From a virus (Duplodnaviria; Caudoviricetes): a stretch of 56,545 nt of DNA. Positions within the stretch are counted from its first letter, which is position 1. Each line of letters starts with the position of its first letter. The notes under the pieces are model-generated. The model was not told the origin of the DNA, made no database searches, and saw nothing but the letters and a program-made list of their open reading frames with translations. Positions 4,047 through 55,903 of this stretch are shown piece after piece. The position numbers and the translations under genes were made by a program. The DNA is taken from positions 1 through 56,545 of the IMG/VR virus record IMGVR_UViG_3300042543_000175. One strand, 5' to 3'.

Positions 4047-5051
4047 TCAAGTCATATTTACGAGTCGGCGGGTTAGCCAAGGAGCAATTTGCATAACTCC
4101 TTCTTGCCCTGCGTTATACTCTTTTAGTTCGGCATTGAGAAGAAGAATCGCACGATCCATGTAGTATTGGCCGCGCTCTACATCAGCTTTCTCTTCGGCG
4201 TTCAGAGCCATAAGGCCCAGCTTGATGGCTTCCAAGGAATCAGGATAAAGCGGATCATTGTCGCTAATGGCCCAACAATGCTTGCGCTTGAAGATGCCTT
4301 GGACGCTATCCCAATTGCGATCCACTAGATAGCGGCGGTAGCTTATAGCCCGCTCCCCAGCCTCATACTTGGCCAATGTGGTCGCTCCCGCCGATAGGGA
4401 GATAACGCCCGTGGTAGGGGTTTTCTCGACAGAATAGATCTCCTTGAATGTCTGTGATGTGGTCTGGGTTCCGTCTCCAAGGTCAAGACGAATTCCCTCC
4501 ACTCGTTCATTATCAACGTCAGAATAAATTTTATTCCCATTTGAGTCCTTTCCGCGAATCCAGATGTAGCTTCCAGCACATTCAGTCTCGCTGCTAGATA
4601 GGGTAAGTGCTGATGCGGTCTCAATGTCCCGAAAGGTAACAAAGCCTTCACCCATGTCTTGAATCGGGCCGTAGTATTTCTCGTCGGTCTTGCGGATGCC
4701 GCGCCCTTGGGGTAGATACTGATACCATTCGCTTTGGACTGCGTTTGTTTTATATCCAGATTTACCCGCCCGAATACAGGTCTCCAGATGGCGAGGGAGA
4801 GTGATAAACTTATTATCGTTGGCGTCCTCGTAGGCCGTTATTGTTGCTTGTACCAGAGTACCAAGCCATTTACCCTCGCTCAAGACCCTCTCGCAGAAGC
4901 GATTAATATTATTACGGAGTTCGGCGTCCGCATCAAAACCCGCCAGATCGGGAGGATCGGCAACAGGTCGGACGGACGCAGGAATTCTCTCGCAACAAAG
5001 CCCAAGGGAAAGACTCGACATAATTGGCAAAGAAATTACCACCTTCGCCAC
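4047..5051 (-). CDS. Putative tail tubular/head-tail adaptor protein
   Basis: 334-aa ORF upstream of ejection-like genes with a helical C-terminus; synteny inference; start uncertain. Confidence 0.4.
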   Translation of the reverse strand: MAKVVISLPIMSSLSLGLCCERIPASVRPVADPPDLAGFDADAELRNNINRFCERVLSEGKWLGTLVQATITAYEDANDNKFITLPRHLETCIRAGKSGYKTNAVQSEWYQYLPQGRGIRKTDEKYYGPIQDMGEGFVTFRDIETASALTLSSSETECAGSYIWIRGKDSNGNKIYSDVDNERVEGIRLDLGDGTQTTSQTFKEIYSVEKTPTTGVISLSAGATTLAKYEAGERAISYRRYLVDRNWDSVQGIFKRKHCWAISDNDPLYPDSLEAIKLGLMALNAEEKADVERGQYYMDRAILLLNAELKEYNAGQEGVMQIAPWLTRRLVNMT

Positions 5052-5068
5052 AGAAGGTCAATAGCGGA

Positions 5069-5866
5069 TTATTGCTTGAAAAGTAAATCCGCAGAAGCCC
5101 CACTTCCAACCCACGGCAAAAATTGTTTAAGATCTTTTACGGGCCACTCCGTATTACTTTGCAGTCTCTCCCAATCCTCACAGGCATTCTCGTATCCACC
5201 TTTGTATATACGTTGTTTCTGGGCCACTTGTTGCGGGGTCACCCATGCCATATGAAGGATCTTGCCTACCGTCATGGAGGTCTTTCCACGATCTAGAAGC
5301 TTGCCCTTATTCCCGTTGAAGATCGGGGGCTCATGGCGCTCCATCCAAAGCCCAACACTATACCGCCAAGCCCGAATCCACTCATTCTTCCTATTTCCAT
5401 AACCATCTGTAGATGTGGATTTTACGTTAGGGCCAAGCATGTAATCCATTTCAAACTGAGCGGTATTGGTTTCGGGGTTTGCGGCGAATAGTTCGACTAA
5501 TCTCCGCATCTGCTCTTCAGTCCATAACTCGTCGCTATCCATTTGAAGTAAGACGCCATCTTTTTTAAAGGCGGTCAACGCCGCATTAATCATCTCGGTC
5601 TTGCCTCCCCACTCAGACTTGCTATTAACCGTGATTCGGGGATGGGATGCTAGGGCTTGCAGGAATTGATGGGTGCCGTCATGGGAGACTTTCCCTGTCT
5701 GGTTGCCCATCCAAGCAGTGTCCTTCTGGGGCATCGCCGCCCCCTCCACAATCGACCAATGCCAGTCGGTGTCTCTTAGTCGGCACAACTCCGCAAACTG
5801 CGCCCCGATCCACGGAGAACCATCAAGAACAATTGTAAATATGTTGAGGGTCACAACCCGTCCCAA
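5069..5866 (-). CDS. Glycosyltransferase, GT-A/GT2-like
   Basis: DxD motif in LLQMDSDELW, N-terminal IFTIVLDG strand, HEPP and ILH motifs. Confidence 0.7.
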   Translation of the reverse strand: MGRVVTLNIFTIVLDGSPWIGAQFAELCRLRDTDWHWSIVEGAAMPQKDTAWMGNQTGKVSHDGTHQFLQALASHPRITVNSKSEWGGKTEMINAALTAFKKDGVLLQMDSDELWTEEQMRRLVELFAANPETNTAQFEMDYMLGPNVKSTSTDGYGNRKNEWIRAWRYSVGLWMERHEPPIFNGNKGKLLDRGKTSMTVGKILHMAWVTPQQVAQKQRIYKGGYENACEDWERLQSNTEWPVKDLKQFLPWVGSGASADLLFKQ

Positions 5867-27781: not shown

Positions 27782-30700
27782 TTAGGTTCCATAAGCGACC
27801 TCCACGGCGTCCACGCTGGCGACCCAGCGCCATGTTTCGGATGTGATTCCAGTTGGGCGGATGCGGATGTAGTCGCCTGCGTCCACCGTTGCGACTTCCA
27901 GAGATGTCGATGAGGCGTTGTCCGTGCCGATAGTTACTGGCGCAAACACTTCACTGCTCGTCCCCGCCACATTCTTGGCCGCGTATTGCCGCTCGTAGGT
28001 GGCGACTACGGAGCCGTCTGACTTCACGCCGACCACCTTGATATTGCAGAAAATGACCTTGCCGCTGGGGATCGTCAAATAAGTCGCGCTGCCGTCGAGG
28101 GCCATTTCTACGGCGGCGTTGGTGGTGGTCTTGCAGCGCAGGACGGCGCGGATTCTTTGGGCGTCACCGTTGGCGGCAAAATTTGCAGATGCGTGGGCAA
28201 ACAAACCGCGCCGATCCGAAACAGATCGCTCGCCAAGCGCCACCGAGTTGGTCGCTGAAGCCGTGTTCGATTGCCCCAAAGCAAAACTGTTGGTTCCGCT
28301 TGAAGTATTTCCATCGCCCGCCGCCATTGAGCGGTCGCCGCTGGCCGTATTGTTGCGACCAGAAAATATGCCCGCCAAGAATCCGCTTGCCGTGTTGCCC
28401 GTGCCGCCGCAGCAAACCGAATCTGGCCCGCTGCCTGTATTATTTGCGCCTCCCCCAATGAACGCCCGCTCGCCTGACGCAACGGCAGTTGCCGAGGTGC
28501 GAACCATTTGAAGCTCGACGGCGCTGACGCCTCGCGCATTTCCTCCGCTGCTGCTTGCGTCAGGCTGCGGCCCCAACACAAACGCCCCGCCGCCTTTTGG
28601 GCTTAAAACCAGCGCCGAATTGGTATCGCTGGCGACATTGGACACGCGCACCAATGTTTGCACGGCATGGCCCGTGAGCAATGTGCCCGCCGTGATGTTG
28701 GTCGTGAAGAGCGATGCCGACCCGCCGTCCGTGGTGGACAACTGGAAAGTCGCCCCGCTGGCGTTGATGACGAAGTAGTTGGTCGTGGTGTTAAGCCCCG
28801 CGCCTCCAGTGAGGGAGGTAAAGCGCACTCGCTGGCCGTTGGCGAAGGCCGACCCTGTGGCGGTGATAATATCGGTGCCCGCATCGCCTGTGATGCCTGT
28901 GAAAGCGGTCACTGTGTCTTCGATGACAAGGCCGCTGGCCTGCAACGTGCTGCCCCCCGTGCCGTCACTCCGCAAAATAGAATTGTCGGTGGAGCCTGTG
29001 CCGCCGCCGATGGTGCCTGTGGCCGTAGCCGTCAAGGTCGTGCCCGAAATCGACAACCCCGATCCCGCCTCCAGATAGCGCCACTTGCCCTCGCTATCGT
29101 CGTAGAAAACGATGCGGTCGGCATTCGGGTCATCGGCAACCAGATCAGACCCCGACACGCTCAACACATCGGCGGTGGATGCGCCGACTGCGGTGACGCC
29201 CGATCCCGTTGCCGACAACTCCCCCGCCGACAGACTCAAGCCCGACCCGATTGTGATCTCCTCGACGGCACCTGTGCTCGCTGTCGTTCTTCCGAGGATG
29301 CGGGCGGTGGCTTGCGTGAGGCCGCTGGTGGTGATGGCTCCTGCCGCTACCGCGCCAACATCTCCTGCGGTGGTTGGGATGTCTGTAACGACTGCGATAG
29401 TTCCCGACTGGTCGGGGATCGTGAGGGTTACGTCATCTGTAAGCTGCTCTTGAACATCTATTGTCGCAGTATATGGCCCTTGCTCGTCAAAGCCTAAATC
29501 GTCAACAAGTTTGGCGCTTGCCATGAGGATGTTGGCAAGCCCGCCGCCGCCTTGCTCAATGCGGACATCGGGGTTGCTTCCTTGCAAAAACATTTCGCCC
29601 GCACGAAGACCAAGCAACGCCTCATTGTTGCTTTCGTCCGTAACGGAAATGTAGGGAGTACCATTGCCGCCAGTATGTTGAAATGTTAGCTCTCCTGATT
29701 CAAATTCAATGATATTGCTTGATGCGCCGTTTAGCGAAACTAATGAAACATCATTGCCATCATTAACGGCAAGTTGAGAAAAAGACGGAATTGGGTCTGA
29801 TCCGCCAGCAGTCCCGCCAGAAAGTGTAATGTCCGCGCCATTGGATGGGATTTGTTCTTCGTCACCCCAAATTAAAGTTGCTTGGTTAGATGGATTGGCC
29901 GAGTTCCACGCAGACAGTCGGTTACTTACCGACTGAGAGCCATTAAATGTAAGCGTGATGCTGTTGCCTGCGGTTCCAGCGGCGTTTGCGCGAACAAGAA
30001 CGGGCGTGGTGGCTCCTGCGGGTATATCTTTAAATTCGGCCCTAACTCCAGCCGCATGACTGGCCGCATGAGCCAGCGTTGAACTCGGCGTCCTCGCATC
30101 CGAAAGCCGCGCATCATTGCCTTGGCAGGCAGTTCCTGCCGTTGTTCCGTAGCTTACTGCCAGTGTGCGGTCTGCCGTGAGGTCTCCGCCACCCGTCAAT
30201 CCCGCACCGCTACTGACGGTTCGGGATGTCGGGACTGCTCCGATATCTGTCGGGGTCGCGGAAGCTCCAACGGTTGCCCGTCCCTTGGCATCAACGGTGA
30301 CCTTGGTATAAGTGCCAGCGACAACCCCCGTAGTAGTTAAGGTTGGATTAGGATAAGTTCCAGTAAGGTCTCCGCCTGCGGGGCCGCTGGGTGCTGTGGA
30401 GATGGTTCCCCATTCGGGGGCCGTGGCTCCGCTGTTTACTTTAAGAACCTGTCCTGCTGTTCCAATTGGGAGTCGGGCATTGACGCCCGTAGCCCGATAA
30501 AGCATATCGCCAGTTGTGGTAAGCGTGGATTCTCCAGCACCGCCAGAAGTGCCATAGCGCGGAAGAATCTGCCATCCACGGGTAGCCCCCGTGTAGATCA
30601 TCGTGAAGTAAGCTCCTTCGATGTTACATACTAAATTCTCTTCAATTCCCTCAATCTTTGTTCCGTTTCGGGCGATGGTCAGATTGTTGGTGTCGAAAGT

Positions 30701-30940
30701 ATCAGAAAAGTCGAAGATATCTACCGCATCACCATTACTTGGGTTTGCTGGCAAAGTAAGAGTAAACGCCCCTCCAGATGTATCGGCAGCTATAAGGTCT
30801 GCTGCTTCTAGGGTTCGGGCGCTTGAAACTACCTCATAGTTGATATCGGGTTGCGGGCCAGTAGGCCCAGCGGGGCCGCGCTCAACGATCTCAATAACCT
30901 CAATCTCCCTCTCTGTTACCTCAATGACTTCTTGGCTCAT
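27782..30940 (-). CDS. Tail fibre protein
   Basis: 1052 aa; collagen-like [28 protein letters not shown], YadA-head-like NTASG repeats near the C-terminus. Confidence 0.8.
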
Positions 30941-34491: not shown

Positions 34492-36333
34492 CTACCATTT
34501 TGTCTTCAGAGTCAAGGACTGTTTAAGTTTCTTGAAGCTTTCTTTGTTGAGCCGTTTCTTTTCCTCAATCGCCTCGCTGCCAGCCATAGCTCCGAATATC
34601 TTGCGGGCGACAAACAATCCTACTGCAAAAGAGTCAAATAAGTCAGGAGACTTTCCTATCCGCTTTTTCATGTCGGTTTTAGACTCAATAATAATCTTCC
34701 GAGTCCTACGCACATACTTTCTCTGAGTCATCTCCCATGCCAGATCGGGGGTTATTCCTTTGAGTTGTTCGCATTCTAGAAAGTAGCGAGCGGCAAAGCA
34801 GAGTTCGCTTGCCATATTGTGAAACAATTCTTTGCCAACTTGGGGTTTTCCCGTGACTTCGTTCCTCATGGCGTATTGGGCGCTGACGGGCAAATCGGAT
34901 GCTGCCCCTGCGAAACTCACTGCATGCCAACCCTTTAGGAGTTCTCGTTCTCCGATTGACCAGAAGATACCACCCGCCGAAGCATCCACCCCCATCCATT
35001 GATTTGGTATTCCCAATTTAAGGGATAGGTCGTGGATTTGCTGGATCATCTCGTATTGGAAGTCCTCTTGAGATCCCGCCCTTCGGTTGAGGACATACTG
35101 TTTCTCGACAGCTATCGCCCACTTGCCGCTGATCAGCCTCCCATACTTCATGTGTGTGAAAACAAAGCGGTCTCCTCCTTCGGTGTAGCTAGGGTCAATT
35201 CCAGCTATATCTTTCGGGGTTCCATCCCAGATGGGTTTATCCAATGCCCCGTGACGAGCTAGTAGGATATCTGACACAATCGTGGAATCATCGGCGTCTG
35301 CGGGAGGCCAGAAGCCCCGAAACTTTCTCCAATACTGCGGGTTTAGCTCTCCGAGTTCCTTTTTGGCCAATGCCACATCGTTTGGCTTGGGTAGGAATGG
35401 GTAACGGAGTCCCTTGCCAGCATCGAAGGATTGTTGGTTGGGGTTGTCGTTTTCTGAATCAAACCTGATACAAACCCCCTCAATACCAGCTACTCGTATC
35501 TTCCAATTCGGGGTTTGCTCGTCCACACTCATCCACCCCTTGATGGGTTCGCAGAACTTCCCGTGGGGGTCAAAGATGGAGGATGGGTTGCCAGCGCCCA
35601 CAATATAGAGTTCTTGCGCTCCTTTGAACCCCCACACCGCCTCGTTAATTATAGAAGCCGAACAATCTTGTAACTCATCTGCTATCAACACGATACGACG
35701 ATTTTTCTTACCTTGAAGTCGCTTCTGGGCATCATCCTTGTATTCGTCACCCGCTGCTAGGAGCATGATGGAAGATGCATCACTCACACCTGTTTCGGGG
35801 TCGATAATAGCCCCCTCTTCATCCGAGAGCTTGATGATGTCCATGGACTCAATGAGTCGTCCAGAGGCTAGTCCCATGTTTCGGGCTTCGCGGTACATCT
35901 TGACCAGTGCCGCCCAGATTCGCTGCTTTGCGTCTATTTTTGACGTAGAGACCACAATGGTCATCGTATTGATTGGGTCGCAGAACCAGTTTACAAGAGC
36001 AAACGCCGCCATCCCGTAGGATTTACCAGAGTCCGTTCCGCCAGCGAGACCAGTAACACTTCGGACAAATCGGTTACCCGTAGCCTCGTCCACCTCGTAG
36101 ATTTGGTTGCAGAATGCCTGTGCGCTCAGTTCAGCCCACCTATGCCATTGGAACGTTGGCCAGATAGCAGAGACAATATTGCGATAATGGCGGGCCTTTC
36201 CAAGTCCTCCATCTTCTGGAGTAAGTCCCTGCAAAAAGGCGTCCATCTCAATACGAATTGGAGTAATCGCCTGTCCGTCTTTGGGTAACCACAACCTCCC
36301 GTATTTCTCTATCCCTTGATCAACTGTTGCCAT
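34492..36333 (-). CDS. terL: Terminase large subunit
   Basis: Walker A GGTDSGKS, Walker B LIADE, GAGNP motif, nuclease AGIDP..GGD and SPDLFD. Confidence 0.9.
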   Translation of the reverse strand: MATVDQGIEKYGRLWLPKDGQAITPIRIEMDAFLQGLTPEDGGLGKARHYRNIVSAIWPTFQWHRWAELSAQAFCNQIYEVDEATGNRFVRSVTGLAGGTDSGKSYGMAAFALVNWFCDPINTMTIVVSTSKIDAKQRIWAALVKMYREARNMGLASGRLIESMDIIKLSDEEGAIIDPETGVSDASSIMLLAAGDEYKDDAQKRLQGKKNRRIVLIADELQDCSASIINEAVWGFKGAQELYIVGAGNPSSIFDPHGKFCEPIKGWMSVDEQTPNWKIRVAGIEGVCIRFDSENDNPNQQSFDAGKGLRYPFLPKPNDVALAKKELGELNPQYWRKFRGFWPPADADDSTIVSDILLARHGALDKPIWDGTPKDIAGIDPSYTEGGDRFVFTHMKYGRLISGKWAIAVEKQYVLNRRAGSQEDFQYEMIQQIHDLSLKLGIPNQWMGVDASAGGIFWSIGERELLKGWHAVSFAGAASDLPVSAQYAMRNEVTGKPQVGKELFHNMASELCFAARYFLECEQLKGITPDLAWEMTQRKYVRRTRKIIIESKTDMKKRIGKSPDLFDSFAVGLFVARKIFGAMAGSEAIEEKKRLNKESFKKLKQSLTLKTKW

Positions 36334-37132: not shown

Positions 37133-37724
37133 TCCGAGGTTTTGTTATTCCCGCAAAAGCGATGTTCCGCCACAAGGCTGGTGGGTAAAATGCCCCGTTC
37201 TTGATGAGCCAGTTCGCGGAGGCGATTGGAATGACATGGTCAATAACTGCGAGAAGCTTCTAATCTCAAGGGGTATTACGCCGCCAATAGATTTTGTGTC
37301 ACAAATAGAACATAATCTTTGTGACCGCATGGCTGGTCATGTGCATTGCATTCCATGCACACAAGAGAAACAAACATTAGGATTTGCACAGATTGTTCGA
37401 TGGGTTAAGGCCATGTATCAATTTGCCATCAATGGAAAGTTTGAGCTTGTCTCTCAAGAAGAAGCAGAACGGCGGGCTAAGATTTGCGCGGCCTGTCCAC
37501 ACCAAATTGCAACCTCTGGATGCTGGGGATGTAAGGGCATTGCTGGGATGCTTCCGCATATTGCTGGAGCCAGAAAAACCTCTTACGATCCACAACTAAA
37601 AGCTTGCGGAATCTGCGGTTGCTATTCCGCAATCGCTGTCCATCTTCCATTAAATGTTCAAGGCGGAGAAGGATTGAACTTCCCAGACTTCTGCTGGAAG
37701 TCTAAGCAGGCTCAAAGCGAGTAA
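37125..37724 (+). CDS. Cys-rich hypothetical protein
   Basis: RRAKICAACP...CWGC...CGICGC...CWK. Confidence 0.6.
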   Translation: MSSPRFCYSRKSDVPPQGWWVKCPVLDEPVRGGDWNDMVNNCEKLLISRGITPPIDFVSQIEHNLCDRMAGHVHCIPCTQEKQTLGFAQIVRWVKAMYQFAINGKFELVSQEEAERRAKICAACPHQIATSGCWGCKGIAGMLPHIAGARKTSYDPQLKACGICGCYSAIAVHLPLNVQGGEGLNFPDFCWKSKQAQSE

Positions 37725-39006
37725 TCGCCTTGTTGAAATACATATTGGCTACACCAGTAGGGCCGTCACGATGCTTTCCGACGATAAATTCCATAGTTGG
37801 CATTTGTCCGTGATCTTGTGATTCTTCGCTATGAAGCATGATGACAATATCAGAGTCTTGCTCAATAGCTCCAGAACCCTTTAGGTCTGAAAGGCTTGGG
37901 CGTCCTCCGCGCTTGTCTGGATCGCGATTAAGTTGAGCCAGTACCAAAACTGGTACTTTGAGAGTCTTGGCAAGGTCTTTGATTCCTCCGCTAATCTCCT
38001 CAACTTCGCACACGCGATTGTCCTTACCACGCTTGCTATCACCCTTCACTAACTGTAGGTAGTCAATGATAATGAGATCTAATGGAGTGCGTTGATGTGC
38101 GCGTCGAGCAACGGCCTTGAGATAACCGATAGATTTAGCAGAGCTATCGTCGCAGATAATTTCAGAGCCTTGGATCTCTTGAACGGCCCGTCCTAGAGAT
38201 TGTTTTTGATGCGGGGTTACGCGACCAGAAAGAATATCAGCCGCACCCACACGCGCCCGCGAGCGTATCATGCGCTCCATCAAAGCAACGCTTGTCATTT
38301 CCAATGAGAAGATAAGAACACGCTTCTTCTGATTCAATGCCACGTTCTCCGCAATCTGAAGGGCGCTTGCCGTCTTGCCGACTGCTGGCCTTGCGGCCAA
38401 GACAACCATGTCTCCTCCGCGCAATCCAAACATCAAAAGATCGTCCAATGGTGTGATTCCAGTGCGAATACCAATACATGGTTTTCCAGCAATCGTAGAT
38501 TCGATGTTCTGGGCAGCGCGGTCTAATGCATTGACGATAGAAAGCTTGTTGCCGTCATCAATTTCGTAGTCAGCCCTCATCACTGTGGTTTCCGACCAGT
38601 TCTTGAGTTCTTCGATCTTTAGCTCGCGGTCTCTGGCCTTGTGAACCATATCGTTGGCCAAGTATTCTAACGACCTTCTGTATCGGGCTTCCTCCAGCTT
38701 TGGGTAGTAGCGTTTCCAGTTATTATGGGCCACACACGAAGTTGCAACTTCTGCAATTTTTTGTTCACCGCCAATGATGTCGTATTCATTGGCGGCTTCG
38801 ATCTCCCCCTTGACATTGATAATATCGGCCTGCATCCCCTTGGCGATACAACGCATGATCGCCCGAAAGATGATCTTGTTCTCCTGTAGATAGAAATGAT
38901 CCTCCTTGATTGATAGAAGAATCTCGCGTTGATCCTCTGTCGGCGCATGACAGAGGCAGGAAAGGATTGCGGTTTCAGCCGATGGTTCGTGAATGACTTC
39001 GTGCAT
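37702..39006 (-). CDS. dnaB: Replicative DNA helicase
   Basis: AARPAVGKT, FSLEM, IIDYLQL, LAQLNR, LSDLKGSGAIEQDSD, KHRDGPTG. Confidence 0.97.
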   Translation of the reverse strand: MHEVIHEPSAETAILSCLCHAPTEDQREILLSIKEDHFYLQENKIIFRAIMRCIAKGMQADIINVKGEIEAANEYDIIGGEQKIAEVATSCVAHNNWKRYYPKLEEARYRRSLEYLANDMVHKARDRELKIEELKNWSETTVMRADYEIDDGNKLSIVNALDRAAQNIESTIAGKPCIGIRTGITPLDDLLMFGLRGGDMVVLAARPAVGKTASALQIAENVALNQKKRVLIFSLEMTSVALMERMIRSRARVGAADILSGRVTPHQKQSLGRAVQEIQGSEIICDDSSAKSIGYLKAVARRAHQRTPLDLIIIDYLQLVKGDSKRGKDNRVCEVEEISGGIKDLAKTLKVPVLVLAQLNRDPDKRGGRPSLSDLKGSGAIEQDSDIVIMLHSEESQDHGQMPTMEFIVGKHRDGPTGVANMYFNKAITRFEPA

Positions 39007-52201: not shown

Positions 52202-52519
52202 ATGATCACAATCAGCAAAACATACGAGATAGTCACTCCCGAATCCGCCGAAAGCGGGGACGTTCAAGATTCGGGATTCCTCACTGAAGCGGAAAGCGTC
52301 ACGTTTCGGGAGCTTGTCAGCATGATGCGGGATTTTCCTTGCCCCTCATGCTCTCCCGCCAGCGGAAACGAAAACGAATGGCTCTCTTCCTACCCTGAAA
52401 CCGATTTTCGGACGGGAGAAGAAGAAACGCAAAGCCTGCACTATTCGCGGGAGAATGCACCTTGCAAGGCGAAATACTGGCGCAAAGCTATGATCGCGGC
52501 GGGAATCATCAAAGCCTAA
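52202..52519 (+). CDS. Conserved phage early protein
   Basis: TYEIVTPESAESGD..DSGF. Confidence 0.65.
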   Translation: MITISKTYEIVTPESAESGDVQDSGFLTEAESVTFRELVSMMRDFPCPSCSPASGNENEWLSSYPETDFRTGEEETQSLHYSRENAPCKAKYWRKAMIAAGIIKA

Positions 52520-52533
52520 CACCTGACAACACC

Positions 52534-53211
52534 ATGAAACTACTTAGCACCAACAACACCAAAATCAAAAAAGGGGAGAAACTAGGCTGGAGAACCTATG
52601 GTCTTTCCCTTTCTCCCGCTGGAAAGAGTGGCAAGCAATTCTGTCCGCATCGCTCAAAAGGGTGCGAGATGGCTTGTCTCGATACGTCAGGCATGGGGAT
52701 TTTCGGAAACGTGCAGGAAGCTAGACTTGCAAAATCCCGCTATTTCATCGAATCCCGCCCCGAATTTCTCTCACAATTCCAGCGGGAATTATGCAATGCG
52801 GAAACATGGGGAAAGCGTAAAAACAAGCCTGTAGCATGCCGCCCGAATGTTTTGTCGGATCTTCCATGGTATAAATTGATTGAAATGGAAAGGTTCCCTT
52901 CCATTCAATTCTATGATTACACGCCAAACCTAGAACGCATGATGCAATTCTTAAACGGGGAATTGCCAAAAAACTATCACCTGACGTTCTCCCGAAAGGA
53001 AGATAACCAGCATAGGGTGCATGCGGTAATTGCGGCGGGGGGAAATGTCGCGGTAGTCTTTAATGAGTTACCAGAGACCTATCTTGGCAAGCCTGTCATT
53101 AATGGCGATGAGAGCGACCTTCGTTTTCTAGATCCGAAAGGAGTGATTGTTGGATTAAAGGCCAAGGGGAAAGCGATTAAGGATGATTCGGGCTTTGTCG
53201 TTCAAGTCTAA
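52534..53211 (+). CDS. Gene product 88 (gp88)-like protein
   Basis: LSLSPA..FCP..GC..ACL..SG.G, RPNVLSD, FYDYT, NYHLTFS, GDESDLRFLD. Confidence 0.85.
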   Translation: MKLLSTNNTKIKKGEKLGWRTYGLSLSPAGKSGKQFCPHRSKGCEMACLDTSGMGIFGNVQEARLAKSRYFIESRPEFLSQFQRELCNAETWGKRKNKPVACRPNVLSDLPWYKLIEMERFPSIQFYDYTPNLERMMQFLNGELPKNYHLTFSRKEDNQHRVHAVIAAGGNVAVVFNELPETYLGKPVINGDESDLRFLDPKGVIVGLKAKGKAIKDDSGFVVQV

Positions 53212-53296
53212 GGTTATTCCCGTCCCCGCTTCCTGAGTGTAACAGGGAGCGGCACGGGGAAAATCCCCTGACAACAACACCAAACACCATAACCAT

Positions 53297-54079: not shown

Positions 54080-54110
54080 AAAACAAACCACAATACAAAA
54101 TACCGCACAT

Positions 54111-55151
54111 ATGGCACACAAAATCGAACAACCCCATGATATCGTTCTGTCCGTTCAAGGAACCGAATGGCATGGACTCGCTCAACACGTTTCAGCAATT
54201 GGAGATCAGGAAGTCTCTCCTTTGCTGTTCGACATTATCGAATCCCCTGCATTTGTTCAGGTGGACGGGGAACAGGCAACACTTGAAGACTACAAAGTCC
54301 TCGTGGCGGATCATCGCAAAGTTCGTCCCGATCTTTCAGGGCGCGATGCTCTGGTTCCGCTTCACATTCCGAAAGCGGGATACAAAGTAATATCGAACCG
54401 CGAAATCTGGAATGTCATGCAAAAATCTTTGCGTGATCTGGATTGCGCCGTCACCTCGGTTTGCACCTTGGAGCGTGGAAAGAAGTTTTCCATATCCTGC
54501 GATATCGGAAACTCCGACATGGTGATCAATGGGGACAAGTTCAAAGCCAATCTGAATTTTGTCACCTCGCATGATGGCACGATTGCAATGGAGTCTTTTG
54601 ATTCCGCGATCCGTATTGTCTGCATGAATACCTTCCAATGGTCGCGGGATGCGGCTCAGAACGTCCTAAAGGTTTACCATACCAAAAATGCAGAGTTTGC
54701 GCTGGAGGGTCTCGGTGACCTTCTGAACGCTATTCTCAAGGGTCGCGTGGAATTGGTTCAGGTGATGGAATACCTCGCGAACCACACTTGTGATGCGAAT
54801 ACCGCGCTGGCTATGGCGGCGGGATATTTTTGCATGACAACGGACGCGAAAGACAACAAACTCGCGACTCGTTCGATGAACGCTGCCCGTGAGATTGCTG
54901 ACCTGTTCGCCAATGGCATCGGAAACAAGGGTCGCAGCCTCTATGATCTCGCTAATGGTGCAACTGAATACTGGACTAGCGGTAACGGCACGGGGCGCAA
55001 AGCCAGCGTGGCCTCGCGTGTCTACCGCTCACAGCTTGGTTCGGCGGCGGAGCATAAGCGCAACTTCATTGCCATGCTCGCTGGCTCTGATCGTGTGACC
55101 ATGTTCAATCGTGGCACAGAAGCTGTCAGGCAAGCCGTCCTAGCGAACTAG
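54111..55151 (+). CDS. DUF932-family protein
   Basis: WHGL, YKVISN, SHDGT, IRIVCMNT, HTKN, YDLANGATEY. Confidence 0.85.
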   Translation: MAHKIEQPHDIVLSVQGTEWHGLAQHVSAIGDQEVSPLLFDIIESPAFVQVDGEQATLEDYKVLVADHRKVRPDLSGRDALVPLHIPKAGYKVISNREIWNVMQKSLRDLDCAVTSVCTLERGKKFSISCDIGNSDMVINGDKFKANLNFVTSHDGTIAMESFDSAIRIVCMNTFQWSRDAAQNVLKVYHTKNAEFALEGLGDLLNAILKGRVELVQVMEYLANHTCDANTALAMAAGYFCMTTDAKDNKLATRSMNAAREIADLFANGIGNKGRSLYDLANGATEYWTSGNGTGRKASVASRVYRSQLGSAAEHKRNFIAMLAGSDRVTMFNRGTEAVRQAVLAN

Positions 55152-55221
55152 GCGAGGGTTTTCCATCTGTCCTCTCTTCGGAGAGGGCAGAATGGGGAAT
55201 CTTCCCCGAATAAACCACACA

Positions 55222-55383
55222 ATGAAAACACCTGAAGAAATCACAAAGCAATTGAATGACGCCGTTTCGGTGATCATCCTCTCACCAGAGATCCGAAAGT
55301 TTCTCACAGTGATGGATCCCAAGGCGCTTGAACAATGTTTCGACGCATTCAACGCCTATCGCAACAGCACAAAAACCAAATAA
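55222..55383 (+). CDS. Hypothetical protein
   Basis: FL..MDPKALEQ; A/C-rich leader. Confidence 0.55.
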   Translation: MKTPEEITKQLNDAVSVIILSPEIRKFLTVMDPKALEQCFDAFNAYRNSTKTK

Positions 55384-55394
55384 AAAACCACACC

Positions 55395-55574
55395 ATGAAC
55401 GCACTGATCAACAAATCCAAAGTAAAAAAATACATTCTGGAATACGCTGCGAACAATCGGGCGCACAAATATACCAGAGTATCGCAGGAAACTATCGACA
55501 GAGTCGAAGCGGCGGCACGTTCTGCTGCCAAGGCTATCGTCACTCAGGCCCCATCGAAAGGAAAGACGCTGTGA
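55395..55574 (+). CDS. Histone-fold-like protein (59 aa)
   Basis: LINKSKVKKYI...RVSQETID...KGKTL matches the prokaryotic histone pattern. Confidence 0.6.
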   Translation: MNALINKSKVKKYILEYAANNRAHKYTRVSQETIDRVEAAARSAAKAIVTQAPSKGKTL

Positions 55575-55903
55575 GTTACTCAATCGAAATAGATAAAGAA
55601 ATACCCATTGGTGACAAGTTATTCTATGCCTTGATCGAAGCGGATGTTTCCTTCCGCGATTCCGAAGACCCTGAACCCTGTGGTCTTGAGATCACAAAGG
55701 CGGAGGTTTCCCCGCTAGACGGCGAACCCATGCCGCTAGAGTATGAGGGGCGGAGGATAGAAAAAGTCATCGTCACGGGCCATCCAGAGCTTACAGAGGC
55801 TATCGATCAAGCCCTTTGGGATGAAGTCTCAAGATTCACAGAAGACAACTTCTGCGACATTGCCCGCGACATGCGGGATGCGGAGGATGAAAGGGATTTA
55901 TGA
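55571..55903 (+). CDS. Acidic hypothetical protein
   Basis: GTGA overlap with upstream stop. Confidence 0.55.
   Translation: MSYSIEIDKEIPIGDKLFYALIEADVSFRDSEDPEPCGLEITKAEVSPLDGEPMPLEYEGRRIEKVIVTGHPELTEAIDQALWDEVSRFTEDNFCDIARDMRDAEDERDL

Follow-up and report, generated by a model that had tools for sequence, protein, structure and literature searches.

What does a 59-codon gene close to the end of a tailed-phage genome encode, and what might so small a protein do for the phage that carries it? The window considered here, by which we mean the whole stretch of DNA that was analysed, is the 56,545-bp IMG/VR record IMGVR_UViG_3300042543_000175 (Duplodnaviria; Caudoviricetes), a linear record from a tailed phage with a CheckV completeness of 78%. 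About 1 kb from the end of this record, within a block of + strand genes most of which are small, an open reading frame (ORF) of 59 residues runs from an ATG at 55395 to a TGA at 55572-55574. An original prediction, made by a model from the letters and their translations, had read it as an early-expressed, histone-fold-like protein without the third helix, which might coat incoming phage DNA or remodel the host nucleoid. We propose that the gene encodes a minimal histone-fold dimer that binds DNA and serves the phage in a nucleoid-associated role, and we give this explanation as a whole a probability of roughly 0.6. The gene itself is listed as follows.

55395..55574, + strand: gene for a basic protein of 59 amino acids, a probable minimal histone fold lacking helix alpha3 (ORF, homologues, substitution ratios and charge)

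The ORF is a real, constrained gene. Metagenomes contain 44 proteins at 77-92% identity to the window protein, mostly of 59-60 residues, and the longer calls among them differ by extra N-terminal residues only; those that carry a name are all hypothetical proteins, except for one odd automatic name. The ratio of nonsynonymous to synonymous substitution rates (dN/dS, NG86 method) was 0.10-0.30 in 11 of 11 window-versus-locus comparisons, which indicates purifying selection; this set comprises the 11 of 23 loci with an ungapped 177-nt match, the other 12 being 58-residue or partial copies that were excluded. When a profile of the close homologues was run against 1.84 billion cluster representatives, 560 matched at E ≤ 1e-3 and 62 at E ≤ 1e-10, which puts the family at a minimum of 560 clusters at 50% identity. 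A chance ORF is ruled out by the dN/dS values together with the family size. A truncated pseudogene of a longer histone was also considered and is ruled out, because the point at which the chain ends is shared across the family.

What fold would such a chain adopt? The alignments used below differ in depth: A1 is a shallow alignment of close homologues, A2 holds 101 diverse sequences and A5 holds 145. From A2, AlphaFold2 predicted two helices at residues 7-21 and 31-51 (assigned by DSSP) with a mean predicted local distance difference test score (pLDDT) of 92.6 and a predicted template modelling score (pTM) of 0.69. The modelled elements map onto the window as follows.

55413..55457, + strand: helix alpha1, residues 7-21, beginning S8-K9-V10-K11-K12 (AlphaFold2 model)
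55458..55484, + strand: loop L1, residues 22-30, RAHKYTRVS, with R22, R28 and V29 near-invariant (AlphaFold2 model)
55485..55547, + strand: helix alpha2, residues 31-51, the predicted dimerisation helix, whose two copies cross antiparallel near residues 40/41 (AlphaFold2 model)
55548..55571, + strand: loop L2 and chain end, residues 52-59, APSKGKTL, with P53, S54, G56 and T58 near-invariant and the KT motif present

This arrangement resembles that of the alpha3 (alpha3-truncated) histones, a group which, as described by Schwab et al. (2024), combines an alpha3 of 3-4 residues with an alpha2 shortened by 4-5 residues and an RxTxxxxD clamp (PMC11390915). Helix alpha2 of the phage protein, at residues 31-51, is shortened as in that group. 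The chain, however, stops at L59 directly after the KT motif and has neither alpha3 nor the arginine and aspartate of the clamp: the clamp arginine in the GRKTL motif of HTkC, an alpha3-truncated histone of Thermococcus kodakarensis (PDB 9f2c), falls into an alignment gap beside the near-invariant G56, and no clamp aspartate is possible because the chain ends. L1, on the other hand, exceeds that of HTkC by about six residues, again seen as an alignment gap, and carries the conserved R22, H24, K25 and F/Y26.

The same architecture is found throughout the family, whose consensus reads LIN..x.VK..xLxxA...R.HKFTRVS...L...E...R......V...PSKGKT[LI]. Residues L15, R22, R28, V29, P53, S54, G56 and T58 are near-invariant (at least 90% of the 145 sequences in A5), and the columns of highest conservation fall in L1 and L2. 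The C-terminal L2 motif occurs in 146 of 148 representatives (P0045-P0192). Among these 146, the chain ends at the motif itself in 62, one residue later in 50, two later in 13 and three later in 8. The absence of the third helix is therefore a family trait, since 133 of the 146 terminate within three residues of the L2 motif, the tails of the other 13 being 4-51 residues long. The basic character is likewise shared: the window protein has an isoelectric point (pI) of 10.2 and a net charge of about +7.6, and the family median is +6.7, with 138 of 146 representatives at +3 or above and a range from -4.1 to +12.6. A few representatives contain duplications. P0071 (118 amino acids) is a full tandem of two units, of which repeat 1 keeps L1 and lacks L2, and repeat 2 shows the opposite; such a complementary loss would be expected if L1 and L2 cooperate in trans, as judged from this one protein. 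P0104 and P0122 have internal duplications of alpha2 and L2 only.

Searches with the single sequence did not reveal any relationship. The window protein matched no Pfam family at E ≤ 1, its best PHROGs match was phrog_25034 at E 0.024, and phmmer against the Protein Data Bank (PDB) returned three chance matches, none of them a histone. At the family level, the 101 members of A2 matched no PHROGs family at E ≤ 0.01, and nine members searched against NCBIfam gave chance rows only. The histone family PF00808 had no match at E ≤ 1 in the whole record, and the same search gave no loci in the control genomes. In a language-model Atlas, 27 of the 30 neighbours were unnamed clusters, about 90% viral; an archaeal cluster in which 47% of the members carry PF00808 (score 0.88) is a lead only.

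Family profiles reached further. HTkC was the sole significant match among 177,635 PDB sequences for the A2 profile (E 2.7e-4) and again the sole one for A5 (E 7.5e-4). In the A5-HTkC alignment, which covers chain residues 22-54, the RVS of L1, helix alpha2 and the G-(R)-K-T-L of L2 follow one another in register, with a spacing from RVS to KT of 29 residues in the phage protein versus 30 in HTkC. The shallow A1 profile placed 9f2c at E 0.64, behind two designed proteins. At the level of sequence profiles, the resemblance to histones exceeds chance.

Structure comparison points in the same direction. A Foldseek search of the PDB with the A2-based model returned 225 rows at E ≤ 10, none of them at E ≤ 1e-3, and those listed were nearly all histones, including HTkC (9f2c_A; TM 0.63, root-mean-square deviation (rmsd) 2.0) and the bacterial histone Bd0055, also known as HBb (8fvx; TM 0.66/0.62, rmsd 1.6, 52 columns, 31% identity). 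VIA-align, which is independent of Foldseek, was used to compare the model with 48,161 representative chains, and ranks 1-16 were all histone-fold entries, with non-histone rows from rank 17 onwards. The top match was TAF4/TAF12 (Z 5.7), and the list includes HTkC (Z 5.3, rmsd 2.0, 52 residues aligned, 31% identity), HLp of Leptospira perolatii (Z 4.9, 24% identity) and HBb (Z 4.7, 50 aligned, 36% identity). When the 225 Foldseek chains were looked at a second time, all 50 of the rows listed were histone-fold entries at Z 4.6-6.0. The superpositions have an rmsd of 2.0-2.5 over 49-59 residues, and the identity to HTkC and HBb (31-36%) is about twice that to eukaryotic H3 or TAFs (12-17%). Because the absolute scores are low, the argument for the fold rests on the purity of the hit lists and on this higher identity to alpha3-truncated histones. 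A search of the viral structures in BFVD gave 176 rows, all at E ≥ 0.47, with no clear neighbour; the few viral histones among them ranked low.

Would the protein pair as histones do? When two copies were folded together from A2, the interface score ipSAE was 0.81, 0.81 and 0.82, versus 0.00 for the best of three controls; as a yardstick, among proteins of solved structure the mark applied to this score is attained by 20 of the 30 that are pairs of one chain and by 1 of the 23 that are single chains. The runs agreed in at least 97% of contacts, with a partner pLDDT of at least 91. The closest predicted contacts are 41-41, 40-40, 37-44/45, 36-48 and 33-48, residues 10, 14, 17 and 18 of alpha1 touch residues 41, 45, 48 and 49 of the partner, and the predicted interface includes L1 residues 21-30 and L2 residues 54-59. 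An antiparallel crossing of the alpha2 helices, with each alpha1 lying on the partner, is the predicted pattern of the histone handshake. The dimer score may partly reflect model memory, because histone dimers are among the solved structures, and as a modelling result it shows likeness to histones rather than binding.

Taken together, the profile match to HTkC, the high-confidence model, the two structure searches and the predicted handshake-type homodimer lead us to regard a histone-type fold and dimer as very probable, and the original prediction holds up on the points of histone-fold likeness, handshake pairing, closeness to Bd0055/HBb-type and archaeal alpha3-truncated histones, and the missing helix 3. 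The protein would then be a distant relative of HTkC, HBb/Bd0055 and HLp that consists of alpha1-L1-alpha2-L2 only, having lost alpha3 and the arginine-aspartate (R-D) clamp and gained a longer L1 relative to the alpha3-truncated histones.

How might such a dimer act on DNA? Two copies would pair antiparallel, with crossed alpha2 helices and each alpha1 packed on the partner's alpha2, which would set L1 (T-R-V-S) in each chain beside the partner's L2 (P-S-K-G-K-T-L). The dimer could thus contact the DNA backbone without sequence specificity at two L1-L2 sites (T27/R28/S30 with K55/K57/T58' of the partner). Further contacts may come from the paired alpha1 starts, where S8, K9, K11 and K12 would correspond to positions in HBb and HLp; in HBb, the contacts reported for the start of alpha1 are T8, S9, K10 and K12 (PMC11317129). 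As with HBb, about 30 bp might be bent per dimer. The face-to-face (FtF) tetramers of some alpha3 histones would not form, because that interface needs alpha3, and the protein presumably either stays dimeric or oligomerises through a new interface. The stabilising and DNA-contacting roles of alpha3 and the clamp may have passed to the P-S-x-G turn and to the longer, basic L1. The contact sites are placed by analogy with HBb, HLp and HMfB, and the signs of DNA binding are indirect: a charge of +7.6, the conserved L1 and L2, the KT motif and an S-K-x-K-K start of alpha1 matching the HBb contacts. On this basis we consider it fairly likely that the phage protein binds DNA. A less firmly drawn step is the biological role, in which the protein would be a nucleoid-associated protein made by the phage during infection for its own replication, recombination, repair or transcription. 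Protection of phage DNA or disturbance of the host nucleoid are possible roles with less support.

Several observations weigh against this explanation. Neither the window protein nor the 101 family members matched PF00808 (at E ≤ 1), PF00125 or PF09123 (DUF1931). HBb and HLp were not reached by the family profiles in the PDB, and the sequence link to HTkC is a weak one, with a single PDB target and two overlapping alignments behind it. The structural scores (Z ≤ 6.0, Foldseek E ≥ 1) lie in a range, below Z 8, in which a match may reflect a common arrangement of helices, and the top places among the structural matches go to TAFs, whose histone folds serve contacts between proteins. When AlphaFold2 was given 45 near-identical sequences, the model was poor (pLDDT 74.1, pTM 0.36), and VIA-align found only coiled coils and long helices for it (Z ≤ 3.9); Foldseek returned one row for this model, 9f2c_B at E 6.7. 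The shallow-alignment model was set aside for the one from the diverse alignment. Alpha3 and the R-D clamp, which in HBb stabilise L2 and supply the R57 contact, are missing. Finally, context assigns no single role, because the neighbourhoods differ between phage groups.

The features around the gene in the window are as follows.

52514-52533, 53277-53296, 54091-54110, 55202-55221 and 55375-55394, + strand: five A/C-rich leaders
52534-53211: GP88-family gene (PF17338, E 9.7e-41)
54111-55151: DUF932 gene (PF06067, E 1.6e-23)
55151-55207, + strand: near-perfect hairpin between the DUF932 gene and a 53-residue ORF, with a stem of about 25 bp and a UUCG loop
55375..55394, + strand: A/C-rich leader of the histone-like gene, free of G and without a Shine-Dalgarno-like run (direct sequence reading)
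55571..55903, + strand: translationally coupled ORF of 110 residues, whose product is highly acidic (pI 4.07, net charge about -20) and belongs to a family that is unnamed and purely viral

The 53-residue ORF immediately precedes the histone-like gene, and the DUF932 and GP88-family genes lie further upstream. Structural and replication genes of the record are found elsewhere on the - strand, among them a tail protein gene (27782-30940), the large terminase gene (34492-36333) and a DnaB-like helicase gene (37702-39006); no tRNA genes were found in the 56,545-bp record. Matching DNA occurs in lake-water metagenome runs, of which 24 are listed, none of them RNA.

At its 3' end, the histone-like gene shares the letters GTGA (55571-55574) with the next ORF, its stop overlapping the GTG start of the acidic 110-residue protein. 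In four loci (L003, L009, L016 and L020), homologues of the latter begin where the histone-like gene ends or within a few bases of this point, and in others they lie farther downstream. A basic and an acidic product in such a pair might point to a function as chaperone, antagonist or DNA mimic. One representative, P0139 (102 amino acids), joins the N-terminal part of an acidic-ORF homologue to the last 28 residues of the histone-like protein at a short common ...EAID/RVEAA... stretch, and is probably a chimera of assembly or recombination.

At its 5' end, the 20 nt before the ATG read accaaataaaaaaccacacc, and similar leaders precede four neighbours, namely the GP88-like, o110a, DUF932 and o53 genes. 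Five consecutive + strand genes thus have A/C-rich, G-poor leaders that lack a Shine-Dalgarno sequence and share a AAACCACAC-like run; the genes downstream of them have overlapping starts or a GGGA-type site instead. This suggests initiation independent of a Shine-Dalgarno sequence in the host. The ORF, its A/C-rich leader and its coupled stop had been described correctly from the start, the translation being identical letter by letter.

The hairpin at 55151-55207 folds at -38.3 kcal/mol (z -4.8), and none of 200 shuffles folded equally well. It is found at the equivalent position in 11 of 11 relatives as two sequence types with the pairing kept (-23.9 to -47.5 kcal/mol). It has no U-tract, and Rfam gave no family for it, the sole row being mir-320 at E 0.4, under the gathering score; a role in processing, in attenuation or as an unconventional terminator is conceivable. 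The GP88-family genes (PF17338) occur as several diverged copies 5' of DUF932 in the window phage group, in clusters c1 and c12 and with at most three copies per locus. Promoter-like sites (5 versus 4.0 +/- 2.2 in shuffles) and terminator-like sites (7 versus 6.7 +/- 2.8) are at chance level and are therefore uninformative on timing; the status of an early gene is only an inference from the position in a + strand block of small genes distant from the structural genes.

Where else does the gene occur? Among 50,697 GenBank phage records, tblastn with the window protein gave no match at E ≤ 10, and the distant members P0075, P0116 and P0076 gave none at E ≤ 0.01. In IMG/VR, the close profile recovered 23 loci and the A3 profile 12. 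As in the window, 13 of the 23 have a DUF932 gene and a GP88 gene upstream; in this window-like group, the surrounding small genes vary, while the histone-like gene stays 78-91% identical. One phage contig (L003) carries two diverged copies (1672-1839 and 5001-5174), 55% and 91% identical to the window protein, and heterodimers of such copies are conceivable.

In a second group of seven loci on six contigs (L014, L015, L017 and L021-L024), the gene adjoins one or both of two genes, for a MoxR-like AAA ATPase (phrog_1297, E 4.8e-86) and for a DUF2201 metallopeptidase/VWA protein (PF13203, E 1.8e-38), and in L014, L017, L021 and L022 it is flanked by the two. The module lies at about 3700-6400 in L017, L021 and L022, and a 46-68-residue ORF (cluster c100) separates the ATPase gene from the histone-like gene in L017 and L021. 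L015 and L024 are one viral contig of 70,776 bp that has the gene at its start and repeats the first 30 codons at its very end; this terminal direct repeat makes it probable that the contig is a complete genome, assembled as a circle and cut within the gene.

A third group (L028-L031) has the gene next to ATP-dependent-ligase-like and processivity-factor-like genes. A contig of a Verrucomicrobiae metagenome-assembled genome (MAG) shows a comparable setting (L037, 2528-6750), in which the immediate neighbours of the gene are a WGR/ATP-dependent DNA ligase gene (PF01068, E 9.3e-12) on one side and a gene for a DNA polymerase III beta-like sliding clamp (PF00712/PF02767) on the other, with a PD-(D/E)XK nuclease gene upstream and DUF3150 and DUF1257 genes downstream; this looks like a replication/repair module of a prophage or mobile element. 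The neighbourhood of the family is non-structural and often one of DNA metabolism, as the ligase and clamp genes in L037 and L028-L031 illustrate.

Genome contigs contain few copies. With the window protein as query, no relative was found among them, and the A4 profile gave four loci. A Faecalibacillus hit (L039) was disregarded, since it matches over 16 residues only (E 7e-4). Three MAGs hold one or two copies, two of these MAGs (G001 and G002) having two each on separate contigs. None of the 300 other genomes sampled from the G002 phylum has a match (1 of 301 being G002 itself), and the gene is therefore a sporadic gene of mobile elements and not a host chromatin protein. The viral contig L025 and a contig of a Chthoniobacter sp. 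MAG (L036) are syntenic over 18 consecutive gene clusters around the family member, so that at least some of the carriers are Verrucomicrobiota (pro)phages.

Could the fold and the dimer be right, and the function nevertheless another? One alternative, which we think unlikely, is that the protein serves as a protein-protein adaptor like the TAF histone folds and does not bind DNA. Its partner might be the coupled acidic protein of 110 residues, or the pair of MoxR ATPase and VWA-peptidase. That TAF4/TAF12 are the best structural matches (Z 5.7-6.0) fits this proposal, as do the absence of the clamp arginine and of alpha3, which aid DNA binding in HBb, the coupling to a protein with a charge of -20 and the seven loci on six contigs beside the MoxR-like ATPase and/or DUF2201 genes, four of them with the gene between both. 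An adaptor would not, however, account for a net charge of about +7 kept across the family, nor for the retention of the HBb DNA-contact positions (the alpha1 start, the T/S of L1 and the KT of L2) in the most conserved columns. The neighbours vary between loci, which leaves no fixed partner, and the identity to DNA-binding alpha3 histones (31-36%) is twice that to TAFs (14-15%).

A second alternative keeps the DNA-binding dimer and differs in its purpose: made early, it would coat injected DNA against restriction or CRISPR nucleases, or decondense or silence the host nucleoid, a purpose close to the one supposed when the gene was first noted. HLp offers a precedent, since it is reported to protect DNA from micrococcal nuclease (MNase) in vitro and to reorganise the nucleoid when expressed in Escherichia coli (PMC12701072), and the location among many small non-structural genes, often of the host take-over type, in a family almost restricted to viruses would suit such a role. 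The promoter-like sites, however, being at shuffle level, give no timing signal, a dimer that merely bends DNA, like HBb, would give poor coverage, and the ligase, clamp and PD-(D/E)XK nuclease modules elsewhere fit transactions on the phage's own DNA better; we therefore hold this purpose, too, to be improbable.

The weakest alternative, a small helix-loop-helix dimer without histone kinship that has converged in shape and acts as a regulator, an antitoxin-like or an anti-defence protein, can appeal to the many folds that two helices fit (all Z < 8, no Foldseek E < 1), to the silence of Pfam, PHROGs and NCBIfam and to a dimer score that could stem from model memory, but we judge it very unlikely in view of hit lists made up almost purely of histone folds rather than mixed helical hairpins, the significant HTkC profile match with both loop motifs in register and near-equal spacing, and the 31-36% identity to HTkC and HBb in structural alignments.

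If the proposed minimal DNA-binding histone fold is real, what follows from it? We put forward, tentatively and as somewhat less than an even chance, that the gene founds a very large family, essentially confined to viruses, whose histone folds are the smallest known and which surveys of phage histones based on hidden Markov models (HMMs) overlooked. Freshwater tailed phages, Verrucomicrobiota phages among them, would then routinely carry a chromatin protein of their own, and DNA organisation by histone folds would be far commoner in the virosphere than in bacteria. A handshake dimer with an L1-L2 DNA site would be possible without a third helix, which bears on the origin of the histone fold; the family would be a natural "deletion experiment" on this fold, with neither alpha3 nor the R-D clamp. 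Only a handful of alpha3-truncated histones have been studied so far (HBb, HLp and HTkC), and the published phage examples are a few hundred predicted proteins, so that at least 560 clusters without a Pfam, PHROGs or NCBIfam match would greatly expand the set of phage histone folds. If it binds DNA, the protein is a candidate for genome organisation or shielding in some phages. At 6.5 kDa, it is simple to produce and to assay for DNA bending, compaction and nuclease protection, and its family size, minimal architecture and ease of testing make it of interest for the field of prokaryotic and viral chromatin.

How does the protein compare with the histone-fold proteins already known? HBb/Bd0055 (PDB 8cmp, 8fvx, 9ezz and 9f0e) is likewise a basic protein of about 60 residues and a homodimer, as is predicted for the phage protein, and its alpha1-L1-alpha2-L2 superposes with an rmsd of 1.6-2.1 over 50-52 residues at 31-36% identity. 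By the published account of HBb, both proteins have the KT of L2, T or S in L1 and a beginning of alpha1 that is rich in lysine, and neither has the features for an FtF tetramer. HBb, however, possesses a one-turn alpha3, from which, as described, I59 enters the dimer core, R57 contacts DNA and D58 forms a clamp with R51 (PMC11317129). All of these are absent from the phage protein, in which a glycine replaces the clamp arginine and L1 is about six residues longer. HBb is also essential, abundant and chromosomal, in contrast to a phage family that was not found in the 300 other genomes sampled from one host phylum.

HTkC (9f2c) and HLp (9qt0) have the same shortening of alpha2 as the phage protein. 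Both are FtF histones, reported to form toroidal tetramers around which DNA is wrapped (HTkC preprint; PMC12701072). Their tetramer interface, which in HLp is given as R49, N53, R55, T61 and F63, is built from the end of alpha2, L2 and alpha3 (PMC12701072); the same interface would be impossible in the phage protein, which lacks alpha3 and the clamp arginine. Nucleosomal histones are more distant. HMfB (PF00808) and the phage protein share the helix-loop-helix-loop core, the RVS of L1, the KT of L2 and the handshake, which is predicted for the phage protein, but the longer alpha2, the 10-residue alpha3, the R-D clamp and the hypernucleosome ascribed to nucleosomal histones (PMC11390915) are not features of the phage protein.

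The closest comparison in kind is with histone-fold proteins of phages, which have already been published. The "phage histones" of Schwab et al. (2024) are described with a C-terminal tetramerisation helix and without RxTxxxxD (PMC11390915), and the latter trait they share with the present family. Liu et al. (2025) used HMMs in IMG/VR to define six classes from Caudoviricetes, comprising 84 bacterial-like and 289 non-redundant proteins. The classes built on an alpha3 fold are reported to extend it, VTTHFP by a C-terminal tetramerisation helix, VHHHFP by a C-terminal loop of seven residues, BBVHFP by a C-terminal helix, VFFHFP by an N-terminal lysine tail and VKHFP by a KOW domain (PMC13681535). 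As presented there, these are tailed-phage relatives of alpha3 histones known from metagenomes and by prediction only, as is the case here. By their descriptions, the published alpha3-based classes keep the alpha3 fold and add an element to it, whereas the present family stops at L2, and neither the C-terminal helix of the phage histones/VTTHFP and BBVHFP nor the VHHHFP loop is present in the 59-residue protein. The 84 and 289 proteins of the surveys stand beside at least 560 clusters here, and the two sets may overlap. The literature searched and the accounts of prokaryotic and phage histones cited here describe no family without alpha3, and it is by these descriptions that we set the present one apart from the published classes. 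Measured against those accounts, what is new is not the existence of histone-fold proteins in phages but a large, unannotated family of them that does without alpha3.

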